NCBI GenBank assembly: GCA_009784555.1
Contig: WRBO01000007.1
Coordinates: 139 to 64,138 of the forward strand
From: Bacillota bacterium
Lineage (GTDB): Bacteria; Bacillota; Clostridia; Christensenellales; UBA1242
Direction: 5' to 3'
Length of the DNA stretch: 64,000 bases
Each line of letters opens with the position of its first letter. Positions within the stretch are counted from its first letter, which is position 1. The notes below the pieces were generated by a model. That model was not told the DNA's origin. It did no database searches and saw only the letters and a list, made by a program, of their open reading frames with translations. Shown piece by piece: positions 23,465 to 64,000 of this stretch. The position numbers and the translations under genes are program-made.

Positions 23465-23794
23465 TCCCTTGGGGGGGGGTTATTACTTTTGAAATTTCTG
23501 TTGGGGGGGGTTTTTCCAAGGAGCCGCGAGGTGTAATATTCAGTTGTCAAATTCAAATCACTGGGGGGTTTTCATCTTTTGAAATTTTTACTGGGGGGTT
23601 TTCGGTATTCCGAACACGGATGTTGGCGAGGCGCGCCAGGTAAGTCTTTCTGCACGTCGAGGACTCCCTCATATCTGGCGGATATAACACATCTGATTTA
23701 TCCGCAGACGAAAGAAAGAGCTTACCTAGGCAGCCGACGCCTTTGCAGTTTATGGTAACACGAGTTTTTTGTATGTAAAGGGGGTTACTGACAA
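23465..23794 (-). repeat. Dispersed intergenic element, copy 2 (inverted relative to 1688..1935), with an extra degenerate twin-tract unit and a nested hairpin body
   Basis: G9 at 23471..23479, G8 at 23503..23510, G6 at 23563..23568 and G6 at 23593..23598. Both spacers contain CTTTTGAAATTT. AAAGGGGGTTACTGACAA at 23777..23794 is the reverse complement of the 1688 terminus. An inverted repeat AGGTAAGTCTTTC / GAAAGA..GCTTACCT encloses a GCGGATA..TATCCGC hairpin. Confidence 0.75.
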
Positions 23795-35400: not shown

Positions 35401-37890
35401 TTACGCCGCATTGGACATATCTGGGCCCGCGTTCGTTGGGTCGGGCTTTGTCTTTTCCTTGTTATAAATTTGTTCCATGCGTTCGCGCGTTCCGACATTT
35501 GATGCAAAGGATTTGTCTACGCCATTTTTCTCTAGGTACGCTTCAAACTCGGCCAGCAACTCTGGCGTGTATTCCAATTTCTCACCGCTTGGCAAATCTT
35601 TTCTTTTGTCCCACATAAAGCCATCAACCAAACTCTCGCGGGAGCTGTTATATGACCTGCCGTGATTTTTATACATCTCTTCACTTGGCTCGTCACCATA
35701 ACCAATCCAGCTATTTACATTGCCAAAGTTCCTGCTCATTTGGTCGGTGCCCGCAACCAATTCTGGGTGTTCCTTTTTGATTTGTTCCAATACGTCGATA
35801 TATGCCTCGGCGTTTTCGTGACTGGTATATATCAGGAAGTTATCATTACGGTTATCGGTATTTGTATAAAACTTGAAATATGGCGCGCGCGTAGACTTGT
35901 TCTCGCCGCCCATTGTTTTGTTGATAAATTTTTGTATAAACTCAACCGTGTTCTCGGATTTCAGGTTTAGGTACAAACGCGCCTCGATATCCTCTTGTTT
36001 TCCGCCCGCCAATTTATTTCCGAACACATGGATAAAGTCACCTTTGCCTTTTTCCAATGTTTCCATGTCGCGCCCCGATTGACACGAAACGGGGTGAAAC
36101 CCATTCATCTCGCCCTTTTCCTTTGCGAACACATCATGCGCGCCCCGTTTTGTAACTTCTTCTGGGGTCATTTTGGGATTGTCCAAGATTTCTTGAAACT
36201 TCTGTCGTTGGTCGGGTTCGACATCTGGGTTTGTTGCCCATTGCTTTACCTGGTCATACCATGTTTCGTATATTTTTTGTTGCAACATCTCCAGGCTCTT
36301 TCCGCCCTTTGGGTCACTCTCGCGCAGACGTACACTTCCGTCATTATGTGCGCCGTTGTTGTAACTGTCGTATCCGCCGCGGTCAATACTGTCTTTCAAG
36401 ATATCTTCCAAACTCGGTGCCTTGACGGTGTGCTTGCCAATTCGCATGTCACCTGGCTCTTGTTCTTTGTCGGGTTCGGGAAAGGCAACCAATTGTCCCT
36501 TTTTCCTGTCTTGCACGTCCTCTGGTTTCGGTTCGGGCTTTGGTTCTGGTTTAATCTCTGGCTCGACTTTTTGTTCGGGTTGCTTTTCGGGTTGCTTTTC
36601 GGGTTGAGGCTGTTGTTGACCTGGGCCTGGCATCTGGGGCCCCATTGGGCCGTATTGTTGGAACATTCCCCATTGCTGCATCATGCCCATGGACATTTGT
36701 TGCTGCATTTGCATCTGCATGGCCTGCATCATGAACATGGCGTTCGGCGCGGCAACGGGCATCATAGGTGGCGGCATCATCATTTGTTGTTGCATCATGC
36801 CCATACCCATGCCTTGTTGCATCATCATTGGCGGTGCCATCGGCGGTGGCATCATTTGACCCATCATTTGTTGCTGTTGCATCATTGGGGCCATCATCAT
36901 CTGTTGTTGCATCATTGGCGCGAACATTGGGCCCATGCCCATACCCATTTGCATCTGTTGCATCATCTGCATTTGCATGGCCTGTTGCATCATAAATGCA
37001 CCCGCACCCGCGTTGTACATCGGCATACCCATTTGTTGTTGCATCATCATGTTCATTTGCATTTGTTGGTACATCGCAAACTGTTGCATCATTTGCATCT
37101 GTTGATATTGCATCATTATTTGTGGGTTCATCCACGGTGGCATAGGCGGGGTAGGCGGAACTGGCGGAACCTGTCCGTCTGGGCCTGGTGCTGGTTGTGG
37201 CTCAGGCTTCTTGTCTGGCTCTGGTTTTGCCTCTGCCTCGGGCTCTGCTACGGGCTTTGGTTCCGGTTTCTTATTCGGCTCTGGTTTTTTCTCGGGTGCT
37301 GGCTTTTTAACGGGCTTTGGTGTCGGTTCCTTATCTTTTTCCTTTTGCGGTTGTTCAATTATCATCAATGCGGTGCCTGCGGCATCTGGTTCCTTGTCTT
37401 TATCTTTGTCGTTATCCAGGTCTGTCGAAACCAACAAATCCTCGACCGACAACTCGGGCTCCTCCGATTGCTTTTTCTTCCAAAACATCAACCTTTCTTT
37501 CAATGGTACTTTTGGCTTTTTCTCCTTTGGCTCGCCTGGGTCAAATTCTTCTTCGTAATCTTCGTCAAATCCACCTGGAACCAACAACTTCTCTTGCAAC
37601 TTCTTGAACAATCCTTTGTTCGGGGCGGTCTGTGGCATGTAATTTCCTTCGTCATCCATCATTGCCTCGCCATCACGGTCAAGTGGACTGCCATGTTCGT
37701 CATAACCATAAACACCTTGCAATCCGTACAACTCCCGTAACTCTTCCTGGTTATATCCGCGAACCGCTCGGCGGGCCTTTGTGTACCATGGCGCATCTTC
37801 ATTAAGAAGATCTCTGGCTTCTGCCGCGGTCAGATGCGTGCGCTCTTCCGTCATTTCAACACCGTCATCTCTTTTGTTGTTTTCGTCCAT
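35401..37890 (-). CDS. Low-complexity protein: acidic N-terminal region, KPEP repeats, Met/Gln-rich core, and a globular C-terminal domain of unknown function
   Basis: 829 aa with no signal peptide or TM helix. Residues ~251-420 contain 63 Met and 44 Gln by my count of the supplied translation. The gene starts 14 bp downstream of spoIVB. The C-terminal domain has RLYLNLK...YFKFYTN..RNDNFLIYTS, which reminds me of HopA1-family proteins (unverified). Confidence 0.85.
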   Translation of the reverse strand: MDENNKRDDGVEMTEERTHLTAAEARDLLNEDAPWYTKARRAVRGYNQEELRELYGLQGVYGYDEHGSPLDRDGEAMMDDEGNYMPQTAPNKGLFKKLQEKLLVPGGFDEDYEEEFDPGEPKEKKPKVPLKERLMFWKKKQSEEPELSVEDLLVSTDLDNDKDKDKEPDAAGTALMIIEQPQKEKDKEPTPKPVKKPAPEKKPEPNKKPEPKPVAEPEAEAKPEPDKKPEPQPAPGPDGQVPPVPPTPPMPPWMNPQIMMQYQQMQMMQQFAMYQQMQMNMMMQQQMGMPMYNAGAGAFMMQQAMQMQMMQQMQMGMGMGPMFAPMMQQQMMMAPMMQQQQMMGQMMPPPMAPPMMMQQGMGMGMMQQQMMMPPPMMPVAAPNAMFMMQAMQMQMQQQMSMGMMQQWGMFQQYGPMGPQMPGPGQQQPQPEKQPEKQPEQKVEPEIKPEPKPEPKPEDVQDRKKGQLVAFPEPDKEQEPGDMRIGKHTVKAPSLEDILKDSIDRGGYDSYNNGAHNDGSVRLRESDPKGGKSLEMLQQKIYETWYDQVKQWATNPDVEPDQRQKFQEILDNPKMTPEEVTKRGAHDVFAKEKGEMNGFHPVSCQSGRDMETLEKGKGDFIHVFGNKLAGGKQEDIEARLYLNLKSENTVEFIQKFINKTMGGENKSTRAPYFKFYTNTDNRNDNFLIYTSHENAEAYIDVLEQIKKEHPELVAGTDQMSRNFGNVNSWIGYGDEPSEEMYKNHGRSYNSSRESLVDGFMWDKRKDLPSGEKLEYTPELLAEFEAYLEKNGVDKSFASNVGTRERMEQIYNKEKTKPDPTNAGPDMSNAA

Positions 37891-43375: not shown

Positions 43376-45772
43376 ATGGAAAAATATATCTATCAAATGG
43401 ACGAATGTCCAAAATCTTCCAAACATTTACTAGGCAGCAAAGGTAACAACTGTGCCGAAATGATTAAATTGGGAATCCCCGTGCCGCATGGTTTCATCAT
43501 CACAACCCGCGCCCATGCACACTACATGGAAACAGGGAAATTAAGCACAGAACTTAAAAAACAAATCCGCGAACAAATGGATGTGTTTGAAAAACGGGTC
43601 GGCAAAAAATTCGGTTGCGAAACTGCACCCCTCCTCGTATCCGTCCGCTCTGGTTCCGCCGTATCCATGCCGGGTATGATGGACACAATCCTGAATATCG
43701 GCATCACCCCTGGCGTGGAAAAAACCTTGGCCCGCCTGACCAACAACACTGAATTCGCGCGGGACGTCCACAAACGTTTCAAGGTGATGTACAAAAAAAC
43801 CGTAGGCACAACCGCCCCCGCCGAACCGTTTGACCAACTCCTGGGCGCGGTAGAAGCCGTGTTCAAATCATGGAACTGTCCGCGTGCACATACATACCGC
43901 TCGCTACACAACATACCCGAAGACCTGGGCACCGCCGTCACCGTCCAAATGATGGTGTTTGGAAACTTGGGAACCCGCAGCGGTACTGGCGTCGTCTTCA
44001 CCCGTAACCCATCAACGGGGGAACGGGAACTCTACGGCGAATACCTAAACTGTGCCCAAGGCGAGGACATCGTCGCTGGCACCCGCACCCCCGTACCCGT
44101 ATCCGAACTGAAAAAAATCGACAGCCACTCGTACGAATGTCTGGAACGAATTGCGCGCGAATTGGAACGCAATTACAAAGACATGCAAGACATCGAATTT
44201 ACGATAGAAGACGGCACCCTCTACATACTACAAACACGCAAGGGCCAACGTACCGCCTTTGCGGGTCTTAAAATCGCGGTCGACCTGGTCAACGACGGCA
44301 AACTAACAATCGAAGACGCCCTCCTGACCATCGACGCAAACATGCTGGGATGCCTGTTTCACCCAACATTCAAACGGGAGAGCTTGGCCACCGCAACTCC
44401 ATTGACCGCTGGGCTCGCCGCATCTCCTGGTGCCGCCTGTGGCCGTATCGCCCTAACATCACGTGTGGCAAAGGAATCCAAACACAAAACCATCCTCGTC
44501 CGCGAAGAAACCTGTGCGGATGATATAGAGGGTATGCACGCATCCGTCGGTATCCTAACCGCACGCGGGGGAATGACCTCCCACGCCGCCGTTGTCGCAC
44601 GCGGCATGGGCAAGCCCTGTGTTGCGGGATGCGCCACCGTATCGATAAACGACGCGGATAAAACATGTACAATCAACGGCCAGGTATTCGCGGAGGGTGA
44701 CGTAATCTCTCTCGATGGAACAACTGGTTTGGTTTACTGTGACGAAATTGAAACGCAACGGGCTCAACTTCCCGACGAATTTACAACGGTCATGAAATGG
44801 GCCGACGGTGTCCGCCGTATGCGCGTTCGTGCAAACGCCGACACACCCGAAGACGCGGCAAAATCCGTCGAACTGGGGGCCGAGGGCATCGGCCTCGTCC
44901 GCACCGAACACATGTTCTTTGACCCCGCACGCCTTGTCATCATGCGCGAAATGATTACCGCCCAAACCCGCACGGCACGTGTCGCGGCCCTTGACAAACT
45001 CCTGCCTATGCAACGCGCCGACTTTGTCGGCATATTCCGCGCAATGGACGGCCGCCCCGTAACCGTGCGCTTGGTCGACCCGCCCCTGCATGAATTTGCA
45101 CCCGACATCGAACACCTGCGCGAATTTAACCCAATGCTGGGCCACCGCGGCGTGCGCTTGCTTGTAACCTATCCCGAAATCGCCGCCATGCAAACACGCG
45201 CGGTAATAGAGGCCGCTATCGAAACGGGCGCAACCCCCGAAATAATGATACCCCTCGTCGTCGGGGCAAAGGAATTCAACCATGTCCGCGCAATGGTTCG
45301 CGAAACGGCCGACGCCGTAATAAAACAAAAGCGGGCCAAGACCAAATACCAAATCGGTACAATGATTGAAACCCCACGGGCATGTTTGTGCAGTGGCGAG
45401 ATTGCCAAACAGGCCGAGTTCTTCAGCTTCGGCACAAACGACCTAACACAAATGACATTCGGTTTTTCCCGCGATGACTCTGGTTCATTCCTCCCCGAAT
45501 ACTGTGAAAAGAAAATAATCGAAACCGACCCATTCGTGCGCCTGGATACCTCTGGCCTCGGCGAACTCCTGAAAATGTCCGTCACCCGCGGCCGCCAAAC
45601 CCGCCCCGACCTCAAAATAGGCATCTGCGGCGAACACGGGGGAGAGGTCTCCTCAATCAACTTCTTCAACGAAATCGGCCTCGACTACGTCTCCTGCTCA
45701 CCCTTCCGCATCCCAACCGCCCGCCTCGCGGCGGCCCAGGCCCACATCAACCACCGCAACAAATGCTGTTAA
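43376..45772 (+). CDS. ppdK: Pyruvate, phosphate dikinase
   Basis: Phospho-His motif GGMTSHAAVVARG and C-terminal PEP-utilizer motifs (FFSFGTNDLTQ, ICGEHGG). The ATG at 43376 has a GGAG SD; the track starts at 43364. Confidence 0.93.
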   Translation: MEKYIYQMDECPKSSKHLLGSKGNNCAEMIKLGIPVPHGFIITTRAHAHYMETGKLSTELKKQIREQMDVFEKRVGKKFGCETAPLLVSVRSGSAVSMPGMMDTILNIGITPGVEKTLARLTNNTEFARDVHKRFKVMYKKTVGTTAPAEPFDQLLGAVEAVFKSWNCPRAHTYRSLHNIPEDLGTAVTVQMMVFGNLGTRSGTGVVFTRNPSTGERELYGEYLNCAQGEDIVAGTRTPVPVSELKKIDSHSYECLERIARELERNYKDMQDIEFTIEDGTLYILQTRKGQRTAFAGLKIAVDLVNDGKLTIEDALLTIDANMLGCLFHPTFKRESLATATPLTAGLAASPGAACGRIALTSRVAKESKHKTILVREETCADDIEGMHASVGILTARGGMTSHAAVVARGMGKPCVAGCATVSINDADKTCTINGQVFAEGDVISLDGTTGLVYCDEIETQRAQLPDEFTTVMKWADGVRRMRVRANADTPEDAAKSVELGAEGIGLVRTEHMFFDPARLVIMREMITAQTRTARVAALDKLLPMQRADFVGIFRAMDGRPVTVRLVDPPLHEFAPDIEHLREFNPMLGHRGVRLLVTYPEIAAMQTRAVIEAAIETGATPEIMIPLVVGAKEFNHVRAMVRETADAVIKQKRAKTKYQIGTMIETPRACLCSGEIAKQAEFFSFGTNDLTQMTFGFSRDDSGSFLPEYCEKKIIETDPFVRLDTSGLGELLKMSVTRGRQTRPDLKIGICGEHGGEVSSINFFNEIGLDYVSCSPFRIPTARLAAAQAHINHRNKCC

Positions 45773-49613: not shown

Positions 49614-49892
49614 AATGTAAGCCATAATACCACAAAATCTGTCAGTCCACCCCTTGACCCCCAAAATTCCCATGTTACCCTAAACTACAAAGGAGGGTAG
49701 TATACATCTAAATGAAGAAAAGCAAACCTCTATACTTTAGTGCGCAAGGGGGTTTGGGGGCACTCGCTTTGCCCCCAATCGTTTTTGGTTCTTTTGGCGA
49801 CCCAAAAGAACAACCGCCTGTTAAGGCAAGGCTAGTTTTCCCTGCAAGGAGGCCCCCATATTTGTGGACGGTTACGCTCATAGTTTCATCAA

Positions 49893-50022
49893 ACCACGGA
49901 CCACGTGTTATCGCGAAGCACAAGGTTCCCGAAGGGGTTCTTATAAATGTGAACATAGTTCACGGATTAATGGAAACCCCCCCCAACAGAAAAATAAAAA
50001 GTAAAAACCCCCCCCAGGCCTA
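49893..50022. repeat. Composite repeat locus: module B (inverted) abutting the twin poly-C module
   Basis: 49903..49973 is the reverse complement of module B. C8 at 49977..49984 and C8 at 50008..50015 are separated by AACAGAAAAATAAAAAGTAAAAA, then AGGCCTACGGCTTCGGG (compare 1929..1945). Confidence 0.8.
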
Positions 50023-57682: not shown

Positions 57683-60600
57683 CTACCCCCGAACCGTCCG
57701 CACATTATTTGCACGTCGTTGACGCCCAATAATGAAAAACAACGAAACCATAGCAATAACCAACAGCGATATAATCGAAAGAATAATAATCTCATTCAAC
57801 CACCACGTAGACATAGAGGTAAAATTCAACGGTGGAGGAGGCTCGACCGAAAACAACGTTCCCATGGACAAACTCGAATTAACAAAAGCCGAGCCATCGG
57901 CGGCAATCGCCCGAACCGATATAATGTGTATCCCTGGAATTACCCCCAAATACTCTAACTCAAAATGATTTGTTGCCGATGTCGCAATCTGAACACCATT
58001 CAGGTATATCGCATATGAATTTGCGTTATTTACCGCATTCCATGTCGCAACTGCGCCTCCGCCAACACGGCGCAACGACTGCGGCGTGCAAAGACGCTCT
58101 TTTCCAATTGGCGGCGGCTCGGTTGGGGGTGGCGGCTCTGGAAGGTCCGCGGGCGCAACCTCTGTCATTACACCGCCAACAACAAACCGTGTCTCCAAAC
58201 TCAACACCGAATCCATGAACCAATCACCGCCAATGGCCATTATGCGTATGCGGTATGTCCCTGGCGCAAAAAACGACAGGTCAATAAAGTTATAAAGAAT
58301 AGACGTCCACGGCGCATCATTAATCATAATTTGATACCCCGAACCATCGGCAACCGACTCCCACATCAGGAACCCTTCGCCAACAATATTCAACGATGTC
58401 GGTGCGGCCAATCGCATCGGCTGCGGTCCTGGCCATGGGTCACCCACGCGCCATCCCGCTGGCGGGGCATACGGGAACCCACTCGGCCACTCGTCACCCG
58501 TATTCCACGCTGGTGGACGTGACGGCATCAACCCTGGCACCGTCGGCCATGGCTCTATCGTCGGCTGATTTGGGTCAACAAAATTGGGGTCTAACGGCGG
58601 CCACACGGCATACAACCGTGTCGTGGACGTAACTCGCAATGTCTCGGTGGGCGCAATTCTAACGGCACCCGCCGCGGCCTCGGTCGCATTGTGCGCCCAT
58701 CCGCGCAACGTAAACCCCTGTTGTGGGGCGGGCACACGTAATGCCAAATCAATAATCCCAACCGCCGAACGGAACTCCTCCATAACGGTAGGCATGTTAA
58801 TCCCCAACGCGCCGTTCGTTCGTATGATGATTACTTGTGCTGGGGTGTATCGCTCCCACACGCCGTACAGCGTTGTGTCTGTCGTAAACGCGGCGGTCGG
58901 TGTCGTCTGCAACGGAACCTCTACCGTACCGCGCAATGCGGCCTCGGCTGACCGGGCCCATCCAACATGCGTGGCCCCCAACGGCAATGTTCGTCGTGCC
59001 AACGCCGTCCCAAATGCATTCGGCCGTGTCAGGGAAATCTCTGGGGCATCCAACGTGGTCGCCAATACGCCGTCACCAATCTGTAACGTCAGGGTAATCG
59101 GCGCAAAGAAACGGTAAACGGCAAACAACTCGGTCGCCGCACTCGCGATTGTGACGGTCGTCCCAACGGCATGGGCTACAACACCCTCGTTCGCCAATGA
59201 CTGGCTGGTCGCCCATCCAACAAACTCAACATTCGACGGTAACAACGACTGCGACGGCGAAGGCAGGGCCTGGCTACCAACAACAACTGGGCCACTTGGC
59301 GCATTGGCACTGTGTGAACTCAACTCGACGTCGAACATCTCACTCGCCATATGCAACCGCAAATTCCCAAACGCACCCGTCGCAAAATGAAAAGTAGCCA
59401 TATTTGGTGTACCTGGTGCGGCCGTCCATTCTGCGACACGCGGGTCATTTATTTGGTGATTACCTGCACGCATAACGTCAATTAACGGCTGACCCAAACT
59501 GGTCGCACCGTTTGGCGCAACCTGGCCGACATTCGACCTGTTTTGAATGAAACGATTCAACGGGGTAAAGGCCGCAAAATCCGCACGCACGCCAAACGCC
59601 CTGTCAACATTCAATATCCAATTTGTAACATTACCGGCATATCCCGCCATGGAAAAGAACATCAAATTGCGCCATCCATGTATCTGGTTCATACGCACAT
59701 TTGTCGGCGAATTTGCAACCGACAATTCACCTACATTAAATACATTGTGTAAATTAATAATCGGGTTGCTCGTCCCCCAATCCGTACCCGCACGACGCAT
59801 CATAACAATATCGCCAACAATGCCGCCCAATCCGCCGACACCCGACAACTGCCCAACGCCAATACTGCCCATGTTGTACGCATTGAATATCGTGCTTGAA
59901 ACGATATGCTCACCACTATGACTCAAATAATTTGGGTTTCCCATACGCCCAACAACACCGCCGACACTGTGTACACCTGGTACCGTGATGTTGCCGTGGT
60001 TTGCAATGTTGAACATCTCGGATACTGGCTCGGCCGCGGTACGCAACGACACCCCAACAACCCCACCTACAAATGTCGAAAAGTTAGACGTGTTAACTAC
60101 CATGTGCGCCATGTTCAAAATGTTCGATACTGTACTATTCTCGGCAAATCCAATGACCGAACCAATACGAACTTCACCCGTGTCTTTTCCTTGCCATGTG
60201 TCGATGGTGGTTTCTGTTATGGTAATGTTACTAATGCATGCATTACACACACGTCCAAACAATCCGAAATCACGTGATGTATTTCCAATAACTGATTGTG
60301 CGCGCATTGTGCGGGGCATCGTGATACGGCGGCTACCTCCGTCAAAATTCCCCATGAACGGACGACTCGGCCCGCCAATCGGAACCCATATTCTTGATGA
60401 CAAATTTATGTCCTCAACAACGCGGAAATACACTCCTTCAAATGTACGGCCACTGGTCACAACTCCTAAATCACCATTAACTAAAAACGCTAAACGCGCT
60501 AAATCGTGTGCTGATGTAATTGCTAATGGATTGGCCGCCGTCCCTACGGTCGACATGGTTTCATCATCATTGTTAACTCCGCGGAATCCGCCGTCTGTAT

Positions 60601-60895
60601 ATGTCGAACCCCAAGGGGCAAAATTCATATCCGCACTCTGCCACGTCGGCGGCTGTGTTCCACCTGCAATTAATGTCGGCCCGTCGTTTCCCCATATCAT
60701 GACGCCAACCAACGCAACGTTCAATACGAACATAAAGGCCAACATCATTCCACGGCGGCGTCGGCGGCGAATTGCACGTCGTTGACGCTCGTGGTAACTC
60801 TTGCACTTCTCGCGCGGTAAAACGGGCGCGGGCGCAAGGCCACTTGGGACTTCGTTGTCAAAGGCGGCGATAAATCCATCTTCGGTACGTTCCAT
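57683..60895 (-). CDS. Large surface protein with GLUG-like repeats, three Listeria-Bacteroides (InlB B-repeat-like) repeats, two Fn3/Ig-like modules, and TM anchors at both ends
   Basis: 1070 aa. RRRRRRG plus a TM helix near residue 50. VGGVVGV, VGGVVGRM and GGLGGIVGD motifs. Three copies of xGWAxxxxxA....T....LYAVW. C-terminal TM helix IIILSIISLLVIAMVSLFFII followed by RQRR. AAGGGGA SD. Confidence 0.75.
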   Translation of the reverse strand: MERTEDGFIAAFDNEVPSGLAPAPVLPREKCKSYHERQRRAIRRRRRRGMMLAFMFVLNVALVGVMIWGNDGPTLIAGGTQPPTWQSADMNFAPWGSTYTDGGFRGVNNDDETMSTVGTAANPLAITSAHDLARLAFLVNGDLGVVTSGRTFEGVYFRVVEDINLSSRIWVPIGGPSRPFMGNFDGGSRRITMPRTMRAQSVIGNTSRDFGLFGRVCNACISNITITETTIDTWQGKDTGEVRIGSVIGFAENSTVSNILNMAHMVVNTSNFSTFVGGVVGVSLRTAAEPVSEMFNIANHGNITVPGVHSVGGVVGRMGNPNYLSHSGEHIVSSTIFNAYNMGSIGVGQLSGVGGLGGIVGDIVMMRRAGTDWGTSNPIINLHNVFNVGELSVANSPTNVRMNQIHGWRNLMFFSMAGYAGNVTNWILNVDRAFGVRADFAAFTPLNRFIQNRSNVGQVAPNGATSLGQPLIDVMRAGNHQINDPRVAEWTAAPGTPNMATFHFATGAFGNLRLHMASEMFDVELSSHSANAPSGPVVVGSQALPSPSQSLLPSNVEFVGWATSQSLANEGVVAHAVGTTVTIASAATELFAVYRFFAPITLTLQIGDGVLATTLDAPEISLTRPNAFGTALARRTLPLGATHVGWARSAEAALRGTVEVPLQTTPTAAFTTDTTLYGVWERYTPAQVIIIRTNGALGINMPTVMEEFRSAVGIIDLALRVPAPQQGFTLRGWAHNATEAAAGAVRIAPTETLRVTSTTRLYAVWPPLDPNFVDPNQPTIEPWPTVPGLMPSRPPAWNTGDEWPSGFPYAPPAGWRVGDPWPGPQPMRLAAPTSLNIVGEGFLMWESVADGSGYQIMINDAPWTSILYNFIDLSFFAPGTYRIRIMAIGGDWFMDSVLSLETRFVVGGVMTEVAPADLPEPPPPTEPPPIGKERLCTPQSLRRVGGGAVATWNAVNNANSYAIYLNGVQIATSATNHFELEYLGVIPGIHIISVRAIAADGSAFVNSSLSMGTLFSVEPPPPLNFTSMSTWWLNEIIILSIISLLVIAMVSLFFIIGRQRRANNVRTVRG

Positions 60896-61034: not shown

Positions 61035-61880
61035 ATGATTCCAAACGAACTTAAAAAAGTTTTCGATTACGTAGGCAAAAGTCCATGGCCGGACAACGTC
61101 CCCGACGACGTGGTCTTTGAATGTGGTAAACGTGCGGCCGCCGATATGATGCAATCGGGCGACTATTATTCGGACAAATTGATATATCGTCTGGCGGGGC
61201 AGAGTGGCTCGGGCAAAACAACCCAACTCCTCCCAACCATAATGAAATTTGAACAACTCCGCGCCCGCAACCCAATTACAATCGCGGTGCGCAACTTCCC
61301 AATATATCACCCCGACTACGATAAAATCGTGGCACAATTTCCTGCGGGAGAGGTTCGCGAAAAAACCAACGGCTTCGCACTAAAATGCCTGGCCGTGGCC
61401 GTCCGCGAAATTCTATCGCGGGGACTATTAACCGTCCTCGACGTAACAATCCTCGACCCGATATTCGAGGAATTCATAAACGGCCAAATCGTGGAAAACG
61501 GCTACACGGCCCAATACCACATACTGGCGGTATCTCGTGCTCAATCGGATATCTTCATCGAAAAACGTCGCCGCGCGGCTGGCGGGGCTGAATCTGGCAA
61601 AATCGTTTACGCAAAAACGGGGGACTACTTCTACGATATCCTACCACGGGGAATTGAATACCTCGCCTCGGTCGACCGCGTGTCAAACGCACTGGTATGG
61701 TCGGCATACGACACAACCCCACTATATACGGGGCACTTCCGCGGCGTGAACGAGGCACTTACAAACGGTCGCCGTATAACCCGCATCCCGGTATTGTCCG
61801 AGGACGAAATGCGCCAAGCAAAACTTGCCTTCATGCACCTCTACTTCTATAAAATTCCTGTTCCCGACCCGCTCGCTTAA
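61035..61880 (+). CDS. Zeta-toxin-family P-loop kinase
   Basis: Walker A GQSGSGKTT and the downstream RNFPIYHPDYDKI, as in zeta/PezT-type UNAG kinases. Confidence 0.65.
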   Translation: MIPNELKKVFDYVGKSPWPDNVPDDVVFECGKRAAADMMQSGDYYSDKLIYRLAGQSGSGKTTQLLPTIMKFEQLRARNPITIAVRNFPIYHPDYDKIVAQFPAGEVREKTNGFALKCLAVAVREILSRGLLTVLDVTILDPIFEEFINGQIVENGYTAQYHILAVSRAQSDIFIEKRRRAAGGAESGKIVYAKTGDYFYDILPRGIEYLASVDRVSNALVWSAYDTTPLYTGHFRGVNEALTNGRRITRIPVLSEDEMRQAKLAFMHLYFYKIPVPDPLA

Positions 61881-62701
61881 AACTTCGGCAACTCTACATC
61901 CTTGTGGCATCGCGCCATATATTTAATGTAATCAATTTCAACATACCGCCACAACTCGACCAAATACCCCAAATCGTCACGGTCTACCTTTTTACCTGTG
62001 CGCGCTTCAAACTCATCAACCATAGGCCGATAAAAATCACTCGGTAACCGTCCAATAATCCGCGCCAAATCATGTATGTCGGATGAATACGCAACAAAGG
62101 CATAATCCAACACGGCCTTCAATCTCCCGCGCTTGTCCAAAATAATGTTCCCTGGGTTCAAATCCCCATGACATGGACACCGCACGGCCTCCATCTGTCG
62201 CAACCTATCCATCTTTGAAAAATCATAATCCCCATTATCGGTGGACTCGGCCAATCGGCACAAAAAATCACTGGCCATCTGGCTCTCAACACCATCTAAA
62301 TTGATGCTCTGAACATCCGCAATATAATCCGCCAAATCAACGGCCAACCGTTGCTTCTGTCGGTCGGTCATCGTGGGATACGCCTCCTGCAACACAACCC
62401 CTGGAATCATACGGTGCTTGCTAAAAATCCTGCCTTTATCACGATGTATGGTCTGCCGTGCCGTCACGACCTTAACCTTACCGCGCACAAATCTATTAAA
62501 GGCAACTTCCTTCGACAAACAATCAACCCAAAAATCATTCCGCGGAAAACGAAAGATATACCGTGTGTCCGCGCCCGTCGTCGCGATAAAGACATAATTC
62601 GTCCATCCGGTGGGTATCTTCTGCACCTCAACTACATTCGCCAAATTCTCGCGTATGATTGCATCAAAATCATCTTCAATCGTAAAATATGCTCTTTCCA
62701 T
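61877..62701 (-). CDS. Aminoglycoside/choline-kinase-type phosphotransferase (APH family)
   Basis: Catalytic loop CHGDLNPGNIILD and the downstream VLDYAFV (DFG-equivalent). Confidence 0.85.
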   Translation of the reverse strand: MERAYFTIEDDFDAIIRENLANVVEVQKIPTGWTNYVFIATTGADTRYIFRFPRNDFWVDCLSKEVAFNRFVRGKVKVVTARQTIHRDKGRIFSKHRMIPGVVLQEAYPTMTDRQKQRLAVDLADYIADVQSINLDGVESQMASDFLCRLAESTDNGDYDFSKMDRLRQMEAVRCPCHGDLNPGNIILDKRGRLKAVLDYAFVAYSSDIHDLARIIGRLPSDFYRPMVDEFEARTGKKVDRDDLGYLVELWRYVEIDYIKYMARCHKDVELPKF

Positions 62702-62792
62702 AATATAGGAATATTATACTTACTCGCCCGTCATTCGTAAAGAGTTTATTGCGACTGTTGCATGCATTACATCGGGTGTGCTAAATTGAACC

Positions 62793-64000
62793 ATGTCATA
62801 CAAAATGTCACAAACGGATAACCGAAACTTTCAATGGTTTGAATCAAATCGGACGGTAAACTCCCTCACGGGGATGCGGGTCGACGGCGGAAATATTCGT
62901 GGCGTCTTCCCATGCGCGGTCGACTTCAAATACCCAATATCCTGTTTCGTCGGGGCCAACGGTTCCGGCAAATCCACATTACTGGCACTGGCCGCCTGTG
63001 CATTCCACGGCGTGCCTGGCTTCATCCCATTGGGTCGCAACAACTGGCACTACACGTTCAAAGACTTCTTTATCTTCACACGAAACGAAAGTGGCCTCGC
63101 CAGCATAGAAATGACAAACACAATACGGGAATCCACCGCCGACAAAAAAAGGGCATACCGAAAAAAGCCCAGCGGCAAATGGCAAGACTACAGCCGCCGC
63201 GCACCAAAACGTGTCGTCTTCTTCGGTATCAACCGAATTGTCCCCGCCTCCGAAAACTCAATATCACGCCATCGCCGCGATAACATGCAAACAATAACAA
63301 TTGACCCAACTATCAAAACCAAACTACTGGAATACCTACAAACCATCTTCCAAAAGGTATATACCGACATCACCTTCGCCGAGAGCTTCACGGCAACCAA
63401 AAAATCCTTCCTATTCTCGGTCAAACGGGACACCACCGATTACTCTGGATTCAACATGGGTGCGGGCGAATCATCCGTCATGTATATGCTATACCAAATG
63501 TTAACGGCTGGTAACGGGGCCATGATGGTCATCGACGAAATCGAACTCGGACTGCACCAACTGGCCCAACGAAAATTCATCGACGTGCTAAAGGAAATAT
63601 GCCGCGAAAAACAAATCCAAATCATCTGCTCAACACACTCGGAAATCATCCTAAACGCACTACCACCTGCCGCACGCTTTCTGGTCGAGAGCGACGGGCA
63701 AACCACAAAATTCCTAACCGACATAACCCCCGCATTCGCATTCGGTAAACTGGCAGGGCAAAACAGCGGCGAGCTAAAAATCTTCGTCGAAGACGACGTT
63801 GCAAAAACAATTGTGGAAAACATCCTTACTGCCCAAACACGGCGGCGGGTCAACATCTTCGACATTGGCTCTCACACAACCGTCGTCAACCAAATGGCGG
63901 CAAATCTACGCCAAGGTGACGAAAACATCCTCGTCTTTCTCGACGGCGACCAAAACGCCTCTGTCACAACACATATAAACAATGCACTTAACGAAACAAC
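62793..64000 (+). CDS. ABC/AAA_21-type ATPase fused to a Toprim/DUF4435-like domain (OLD-family, GajA-like or fused PARIS-like). The 3' end runs off the window.
   Basis: Own translation; absent from the track because there is no in-window stop. MSYKMSQTDN...FVGANGSGKSTLL (Walker A), SGFNMGAGESSV (signature-like), AMMVIDEIELGLH (Walker B), CSTHS (H-loop), then KIFVEDDVAKTIVENIL ... ILVFLDGDQN (Toprim-like E ... DxD). Confidence 0.7.
   Translation, partial: MSYKMSQTDNRNFQWFESNRTVNSLTGMRVDGGNIRGVFPCAVDFKYPISCFVGANGSGKSTLLALAACAFHGVPGFIPLGRNNWHYTFKDFFIFTRNESGLASIEMTNTIRESTADKKRAYRKKPSGKWQDYSRRAPKRVVFFGINRIVPASENSISRHRRDNMQTITIDPTIKTKLLEYLQTIFQKVYTDITFAESFTATKKSFLFSVKRDTTDYSGFNMGAGESSVMYMLYQMLTAGNGAMMVIDEIELGLHQLAQRKFIDVLKEICREKQIQIICSTHSEIILNALPPAARFLVESDGQTTKFLTDITPAFAFGKLAGQNSGELKIFVEDDVAKTIVENILTAQTRRRVNIFDIGSHTTVVNQMAANLRQGDENILVFLDGDQNASVTTHINNALNET

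Follow-up and report, generated by a model that had tools for sequence, protein, structure and literature searches.

The closest described systems are both encoded by a single gene. HEC-04 (Hma-embedded candidate 04), one polypeptide that joins an ATP-binding cassette (ABC) ATPase to a C-terminal Toprim domain, protects Escherichia coli against T4, T5 and other coliphages; its mutants K62A and E319A/D375A/D377A lose defence, and its induction is toxic (Payne et al., bioRxiv 10.1101/2024.01.29.577857). IbfA of IncI1 plasmids, reported as a HEC-04 homologue, lowers the efficiency of plating and the burst size of a P22-like phage (PMC12111858). Here, we describe a gene of this architecture in a bacterium of the Christensenellales (Bacillota; assembly GCA_009784555.1; 1.12 Mb in 29 contigs, 88% complete). 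It lies at the right-hand end of a 64,000-nt stretch of contig WRBO01000007.1 (C7:139-64138), referred to below as the window.

We place a probability of roughly 0.8 on this gene being a complete, apparently functional HEC-04/IbfA-type single-protein anti-phage system, composed of an ABC-type ATPase head, a predicted Toprim nuclease domain resembling that of OLD (overcoming lysogenization defect) nucleases, and a helical bundle. It would thus be a divergent new member of a known, experimentally tested single-gene family of OLD-like defence proteins, a credible but ordinary finding.

A complete gene that outruns the window

On the plus strand, an open reading frame (ORF) starts with an ATG at position 62793 and is still open at the window end, 64000, after 402 codons. 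The contig continues for another 698 bp, to position 64836, and carries the rest of the gene: the stop lies at C7:64511 (L002:2512; would-be window position 64373), 373 bp past the window and 325 bp before the contig end. Positions 62793..64000 (+) therefore hold codons 1-402 of a 526-codon gene (product P0001), as established from the ORF map, the contig and the PADLOC HEC-04 match described below. A first-pass annotation, made from the window sequence alone, had called the gene edge-truncated, which is true of the window—cut at codon 402—but not of the gene, which is complete on the contig.

The public gene call (P0002) begins at M28 and spans 499 aa, which is probably too short at the N-terminus. 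Residues Y3, D9 and F16 are invariant in an alignment (MAFFT) of 44 full-length homologues, and the first 27 codons (62793-62873) form a confident helix in the AlphaFold2 model; both observations support 62793, rather than M28, as the true start. For annotation purposes, we suggest 62793 as the start and HEC-04/IbfA-like ATPase-Toprim defence nuclease as the label.

HEC-04 is the best family match across both domains

Among 126 PADLOC matches, HEC-04 (PDLC04149) ranked first, with an E-value of 1.2e-61 and an alignment of residues 33-522 to profile positions 33-489 of 494, equivalent to 93% of both protein and profile. The second-best model, ATPase-Toprim_I-B (9e-28), reached through the DxD motif of the Toprim domain, and the AriA, PtuA, GajA and remaining models covered the ATPase only. 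All 44 aligned homologues likewise matched HEC-04 best. Searching Pfam with the 526-aa protein returned ABC-type ATPase families exclusively (AAA_15, 1.8e-16; AAA_21, 4.7e-16), and nothing in NCBIfam came near any cut-off.

Direct comparison to the tested HEC-04 protein (WP_081360980.1 of E. coli MOD1-EC5853, taken from Table S2 of bioRxiv 10.1101/2024.01.29.577857) revealed 29% identity over 324 residues (E 5e-35). The four residues essential for HEC-04 defence, K62, E319, D375 and D377, are retained as K60, E333, D384 and D386, the match of D375/D377 resting on the shared motif (IIDGD vs FLDGD) and the family alignment, as the BLAST alignment of the pair went no further than residue 345. Both proteins, moreover, carry an LPGxxPE motif after strand 4. 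They differ in length (490 aa for HEC-04), in host—E. coli as opposed to a small-genome organism—and in context, the window gene not being embedded in an Hma system. The clade of the window protein is also a separate one, with members of about 510-530 aa (182 clusters at E ≤ 1e-30).

An IbfA-like protein from an IncI plasmid (WP_001579759.1, 518 aa, encoded next to a ProQ/FinO gene), which we used to represent IbfA of R64 and pUA1135, was 27% identical over residues 47-496 (E 1e-30) and itself matched HEC-04 best (9e-42). It shares the architecture of the window protein, and its VEDD, DGD and PE motifs align. In contrast to the window protein, IbfA is plasmid-borne rather than chromosomal, does not have the N-terminal helix (MxYxxSQxD...F) that is conserved in the clade of the window protein, and has a PADLOC match that stops at residue 387.

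PARIS, in which an ABC ATPase head related to the present one (AriA) works with a Toprim effector (AriB), was among the identities put forward in the first-pass annotation, as a single-chain AriA-AriB fusion. Under this reading, anti-restriction proteins would act as the trigger, and the Toprim part, once released or activated, would work as a tRNA nuclease. AriA models do match the ATPase (E 3.5e-18), and AriA structures are the second-best sequence matches in the PDB; yet these AriA matches span just the part from Walker B to H-loop. The domain of AriB, DUF4435, to which the first-pass annotation had likened the C-terminal segment, matched neither the protein (no PF14491 match at E ≤ 10 in the last 193 aa) nor the genome in a six-frame search. 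The 50 best fold neighbours of the C-terminal part did not include an AriB structure, nor was the AriAB fusion model among the 20 PADLOC matches at E ≤ 1e-10. A fused PARIS system is thus very improbable.

Motifs of ATPase and Toprim domain are invariant in the family

The ABC-type ATPase head occupies about residues 24-310 (62862..63722, +), as judged from AAA_15 and AAA_21, the AlphaFold2 model, Foldseek and invariant alignment columns, and holds a conserved, family-specific insert at about residues 86-200 (DFF, KKPSGKW, GINRIVP). Its Walker A motif or P-loop, GANGSGKST (G54-T62; 62952..62978, +), contains K60, the counterpart of K62 in the tested HEC-04. An ABC signature-like NMGAGE (N221-E226; 63453..63470, +) lines up with SAGE in the IbfA-like protein and with GAGE in HEC-04; N221, M222, G223, G225 and E226 are invariant in the 44 homologues. 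Walker B and D-loop, MMVIDEIELGLH (M244-H255, with D248, E249 and H255; 63522..63557, +), align to the same motifs of AriA and of the Thermus scotoductus (Ts) OLD structure 6p74, and are followed by the H-loop STHS (S280-S283; 63630..63641, +), whose H282 is invariant in the family alignment.

The C-terminal Toprim and helical region, delimited by the C-terminal structure model and Foldseek, comprises residues 322-526; its start lies at 63756..64000 (+), with residues from 403 on beyond the window. Strand 1 of the Toprim fold with the putative catalytic acidic pair is KIFVEDD (63777..63797, +), in which E333 and D334 are invariant and E333 corresponds to E319 of HEC-04. Strand 3 with the DxD motif is LVFLDGD (63930..63950, +), its invariant D384, G385 and D386 including the counterparts of HEC-04 D375/D377. 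Every motif quoted in the first-pass annotation—GANGSGKST, the Walker B segment, STHS, FVEDD and LVFLDGD—was indeed present. The ATPase and Toprim motif residues are invariant throughout the 44-sequence alignment, and so are E327, G359, E434 and H478; these motifs are therefore not a product of chance.

Predicted structure and relation to OLD nucleases

We ran AlphaFold2 on the 44-sequence alignment and searched the models against the PDB with Foldseek. The full-length model was confident (predicted local distance difference test score, pLDDT, 91; predicted template modelling score 0.86) and displayed, in its C-terminal part, the order of a Toprim fold: strand 328-332, helix, strand 353-357, helix, strand 379-383, DGD, helices and strand 424-426, after which a helical bundle follows. 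The top fold neighbour over both domains was the Class 1 OLD protein 6p74 from T. scotoductus (E 1.8e-11, 574 columns), followed by PtuA, Rad50 and SMC heads. When residues 310-526 were modelled alone (pLDDT 94.9), the confident matches were limited to two OLD C-terminal regions, those of Xanthomonas (6njw; E 2.2e-4, probability 1.0, template modelling (TM) score 0.49/0.51; no other match at E ≤ 0.001) and Burkholderia (6nk8; probability 1.0, TM score 0.47-0.50). These matches are in line with the comparison to 6NK8 that the preprint itself makes for HEC-04 (bioRxiv 10.1101/2024.01.29.577857). At the sequence level, the Toprim relation to OLD went undetected: sequence and profile searches of the PDB gave matches in the ATPase region alone.

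OLD Toprim domains use two-metal catalysis, in which metal A is held by a Glu and the DxD motif, and metal B by an acidic residue at Glu+4 and an S/T-x-E after strand 4 (PMC7049728). The metal A triad is present as E333, D384 and D386. The invariant E434, located after strand 4, is a plausible metal B ligand, and the invariant D334 may substitute for the acidic residue at Glu+4, which the window protein lacks. The likeness to the OLD family thus consists of an ABC head, a Toprim domain with the Glu/DxD metal site and the single-gene organisation of Class 1. Apart from the missing metal B ligand at Glu+4 and the absence of a sequence-level match in the Toprim region, there are two differences. 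The window protein retains the ABC signature, which is degenerate in Class 1 OLD (PMC7049728), and it offers no clear counterpart to the Lys/Arg of OLD, carrying instead the invariant H478 in the helical region.

Alternatively, the protein could be an OLD nuclease of the classical Class 1 kind, grouping with P2 Old, Thermus Ts OLD and Vibrio Vc OLD rather than in a HEC-04/IbfA lineage of its own. The architecture is the same: a single gene for an ATPase joined to a Toprim domain, with no helicase ORF in the 325 bp downstream (PMC12392090, PMC7049728), and a length of 526 aa that falls within the 500-600 aa range set for Class 1 (PMC12392090). Ts OLD 6p74 is also the best PDB match both by sequence profile (8.8e-12) and by fold. 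However, PADLOC Old was not among the 20 families that the protein matched at E ≤ 1e-10, whereas the P2 Old control matched that model at 1e-214 and did not have HEC-04 in its top 25. An hhalign comparison of the family profile to P2 Old aligned just the ATPase columns 233-319 (Walker B to H-loop), and the C-terminal region, with a helical bundle that is missing from Ts OLD, looks like that of Class 2. Hence, of the OLD candidate in the first-pass annotation, the OLD-like fold (6p74, 6njw, 6nk8) held up and membership of the classical clade did not; we deem the latter unlikely. If Class 1 were defined by architecture alone, the disagreement would reduce to naming. What Pfam, PADLOC, AlphaFold2 with Foldseek and the HEC-04 alignment jointly bear out is the general class already named at first pass, an ABC-type ATPase in fusion with a Toprim domain in the OLD-like anti-phage group.

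No partner gene recurs beside the family

The first-pass annotation expected partner genes beyond the window, such as a GajB-like helicase. In the 325 bp after the stop codon, no plus-strand ORF starts and runs on, be it for a UvrD-like helicase or another protein. For the homologues, we surveyed 80 loci from species genomes of more than 10 phyla, with three ORFs called on each side and clustered. Among 390 neighbouring ORFs in 77 loci, the largest homology cluster comprised 3 loci, and the downstream gene lay on the opposite strand in 38 of 70. No helicase, reverse transcriptase (RT) or other partner recurred beside the 77 homologues, and the family therefore appears to be a single-gene system.

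This bears on two further identities. One is GajA of Gabija, another two-gene immunity system that pairs a related ABC ATPase head and Toprim effector with a UvrD-like helicase, here GajB, which would then lie beyond the contig end. It is true that the protein is of the ATPase-Toprim kind and that the contig stops 325 bp past the gene. Yet, the best GajA model (1e-10) covered residues 221-307 only, unlike in the P2 Old control, which matched many GajA models through its Toprim domain. The sequence after the stop is a dispersed repeat devoid of a plus-strand ORF start, the neighbours of the 77 homologous loci are not conserved, and the UvrD-type genes of the genome, frames of 708-1086 aa, are at least 5 kb from any contig end. 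The GajA proposal made at first pass is extremely improbable.

The other is a type I-B retron effector (Class 3 OLD), from which an assembly break would have split off the RT and the noncoding RNA. Although ATPase-Toprim_I-B is the runner-up among the PADLOC models and the genome does contain two RT genes, the gene upstream of the ATPase-Toprim gene encodes a divergent APH-type kinase rather than an RT. Of the two RTs, the one on contig C15 is a full-length UG26-class enzyme and the one on C4 is generic, and the RT_I-B model scored far lower on both; RTs did not recur beside the homologues either. A retron effector is accordingly scarcely credible. Gabija, PARIS and the retron were rejected because the evidence on partner genes, DUF4435 and a type I-B RT was negative throughout; the DUF4435 protein or UvrD-like helicase that sets PARIS and Gabija apart as two-gene systems was not found here.

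Points that weigh against a HEC-04/IbfA-type system

Several observations count against the assignment to the HEC-04/IbfA family or its apparent functionality. At E ≤ 10, Pfam returned no Toprim, OLD-Toprim or DUF4435 domain for the C-terminal 193 aa, the one hit being a chance-level Tla3_C (0.06), so that the Toprim call draws on the predicted structure, motif conservation and two PADLOC profiles. Identity to the two tested members is 27-29%, and the nearest public relative found is 52-54% identical (52% by local alignment, 54% in the MAFFT alignment). The Glu+4 position is not acidic (Ala/Gly; A337 here), making the second metal site uncertain. In the helical region, the near-invariant E480 is Ile: at residues 477-480 (L002:2360-2371), past the Toprim core, the family has G-K-H-N-E-F and the window protein D-P-H-N-I-F, with the His kept and the Glu lost. 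Finally, since the contig ends 325 bp past the stop, a distant downstream partner is conceivable at this locus.

The gene is accessory and the family widespread

The gene was absent from all 40 relatives inspected (4 congeneric genomes, 20 from the same family and 16 from the same order) and is therefore accessory; we consider it horizontally acquired by this small (about 1.1 Mb) genome. Its GC content (0.498, compared to 0.488 genome-wide) does not mark it as foreign. A synteny search at the DNA level in the four same-genus genomes recovered just tRNA-Asn, these genomes being too diverged to inform on island borders. The mosaic, accessory placement suggested at first pass is thus supported by the absence of the gene from the 40 relatives and by the occurrence of the neighbouring kinase pair in just one other relative. 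The same absence, together with a score of 21 bits against a cut-off of 172 for the RecF model TIGR00611, led us to reject a housekeeping ATPase of the RecF/RecN/SMC kind; the first-pass annotation had set a RecF/RecN-like repair ATPase against a defence nuclease.

A full HMMER search over 1.84 billion cluster representatives yielded 182 clusters at E ≤ 1e-30, a number that rose to 1055 at E ≤ 1e-10; the closest of the representatives shared 42% identity. The family spans more than 10 phyla, conjugative plasmids and one integrative and conjugative element (ICE). By contrast, a tblastn search of 50,697 phage records gave 5 weak partial matches only, and the family is therefore not typically phage-borne. 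As a side observation, two HEC-04-like genes lie about 8 kb apart on one contig of a Patescibacteria metagenome-assembled genome (JASDUA010000002.1; L087/L088).

Homologues were found on 887 plasmids, 715 of them conjugative, and inside a type IV secretion system/ICE cluster of Oscillibacter valericigenes. It is thus conceivable that the family mainly serves mobile elements, in plasmid or ICE competition, exclusion or maintenance, with phage defence as a side effect; the authors of the IbfA study, too, raise functions beyond defence (PMC12111858). Against this speak the direct anti-phage phenotypes of two members, HEC-04 and IbfA, and the many chromosomal homologues flanked by metabolic genes; the window copy itself has no conjugation genes nearby. 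We regard a primarily mobile-element role as decidedly unlikely.

The RT genes of the genome are located at C15:19849-21045 (L104:2350-3546, minus strand), where the full-length UG26-class, defence-associated RT is encoded (PADLOC RT_UG26, E 4.8e-155), and at C4:16545-17669, the position of the second, generic RT. The presence of a divergent, intact HEC-04/IbfA-type gene and a UG26-class RT in a genome of about 1.1 Mb suggests that reduced genomes keep horizontally acquired anti-phage genes. Distant family members like the present one are useful comparison points for mechanistic work; they do not open a new question.

A candidate mechanism

In the proposed mechanism, the ATPase head would bind ATP and act as the infection sensor or switch, and would probably pair up with a second head in the manner of other ABC ATPases. 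A phage cue might cause the head, on ATP binding, to license the Toprim active site, which we predict to consist of E333/D334, D384-x-D386 and E434 with divalent metal ions. The Toprim domain would then cut nucleic acid, the most likely outcome—judging from OLD nucleases—being nicking or degradation of DNA; tRNA, the substrate in PARIS, is an alternative that we do not favour. Phage replication would be arrested at a cost to the infected cell, a cost we propose because HEC-04 is toxic on induction and IbfA resembles an abortive-infection factor in its behaviour. The protein presumably acts alone, without a partner gene.

The clade of about 510-530 aa has its own marks: the N-terminal helix, the KKPSGKW/GINRIVP insert, and a helical bundle, holding an invariant His, behind the Toprim domain. 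For the listed homologues, the recorded Pfam domains are ATPase families only. One may ask whether the clade forms a mechanistically distinct branch of single-chain ABC-Toprim immunity, which might respond to a trigger of its own and act on something else than phage DNA, for instance tRNA as in PARIS; we give this a small chance. Within the clade, the window copy appears to have diverged further, since the near-invariant Glu at position 480 is lost.

Neighbouring genes and a dispersed repeat

Upstream of the ATPase-Toprim gene is a divergent APH-type kinase gene (61877-62701, -; Pfam APH, 8e-20), itself convergent with a zeta-toxin-like kinase gene (61035-61880, +; Pfam Zeta_toxin, 5e-13), such that the 3' ends of the two kinase genes overlap by 4 nt. 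The same convergent pair occurs in 1 of 25 relatives (G010:C44:385-2000; 43% and 37% identity) and looks like a mobile two-gene module. Farther upstream, a putative surface protein of 1070 aa (57683-60895, -), with no Pfam match at E ≤ 0.001, adjoins tRNA-Asn.

The divergent spacer between the ATPase-Toprim gene and the start of the APH-type kinase gene at 62701 measures 91 bp on the ORF map (62702..62792, +) and is the presumed promoter region. A consensus scan of this spacer revealed no sigma-70-like site on the plus strand and one on the minus strand, for the kinase gene; overall, promoter and terminator sites were no more numerous than in shuffled sequence.

The 325 bp after the gene (L002:2513-2837; C7:64512-64836) are modular, being composed of dispersed repeats; they have 60 blastn matches in the genome and probably caused the contig break. 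Copies of the end modules are found inside the window at about 1882-1953, 23472-23516, 49650-49689, 49833-49855 and 49974-50016. The central module of ~140 nt has 14 near-full-length copies, all of them intergenic. Its consensus forms a long hairpin (-53 kcal/mol), 11 of whose 42 pairs exhibit compensatory double changes (e.g. GC:7 UA:4 CG:3), and which also includes a G-U-rich pair favouring one strand. Neither the gene nor this repeat tail matched Rfam. The repeat could be a structured RNA or an element resembling repetitive extragenic palindromes (REP) or miniature inverted-repeat transposable elements (MITE). Two inverted pairs of the ~140-nt repeat, each in a single intergenic region, lie at C9:35832-35983(-) with 36427-36581(+) and at C10:43180-43334(-) with 43599-43754(+). 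The copies in both pairs are about 260-445 bp apart, and this inverted pairing suggests composite or mobile units.

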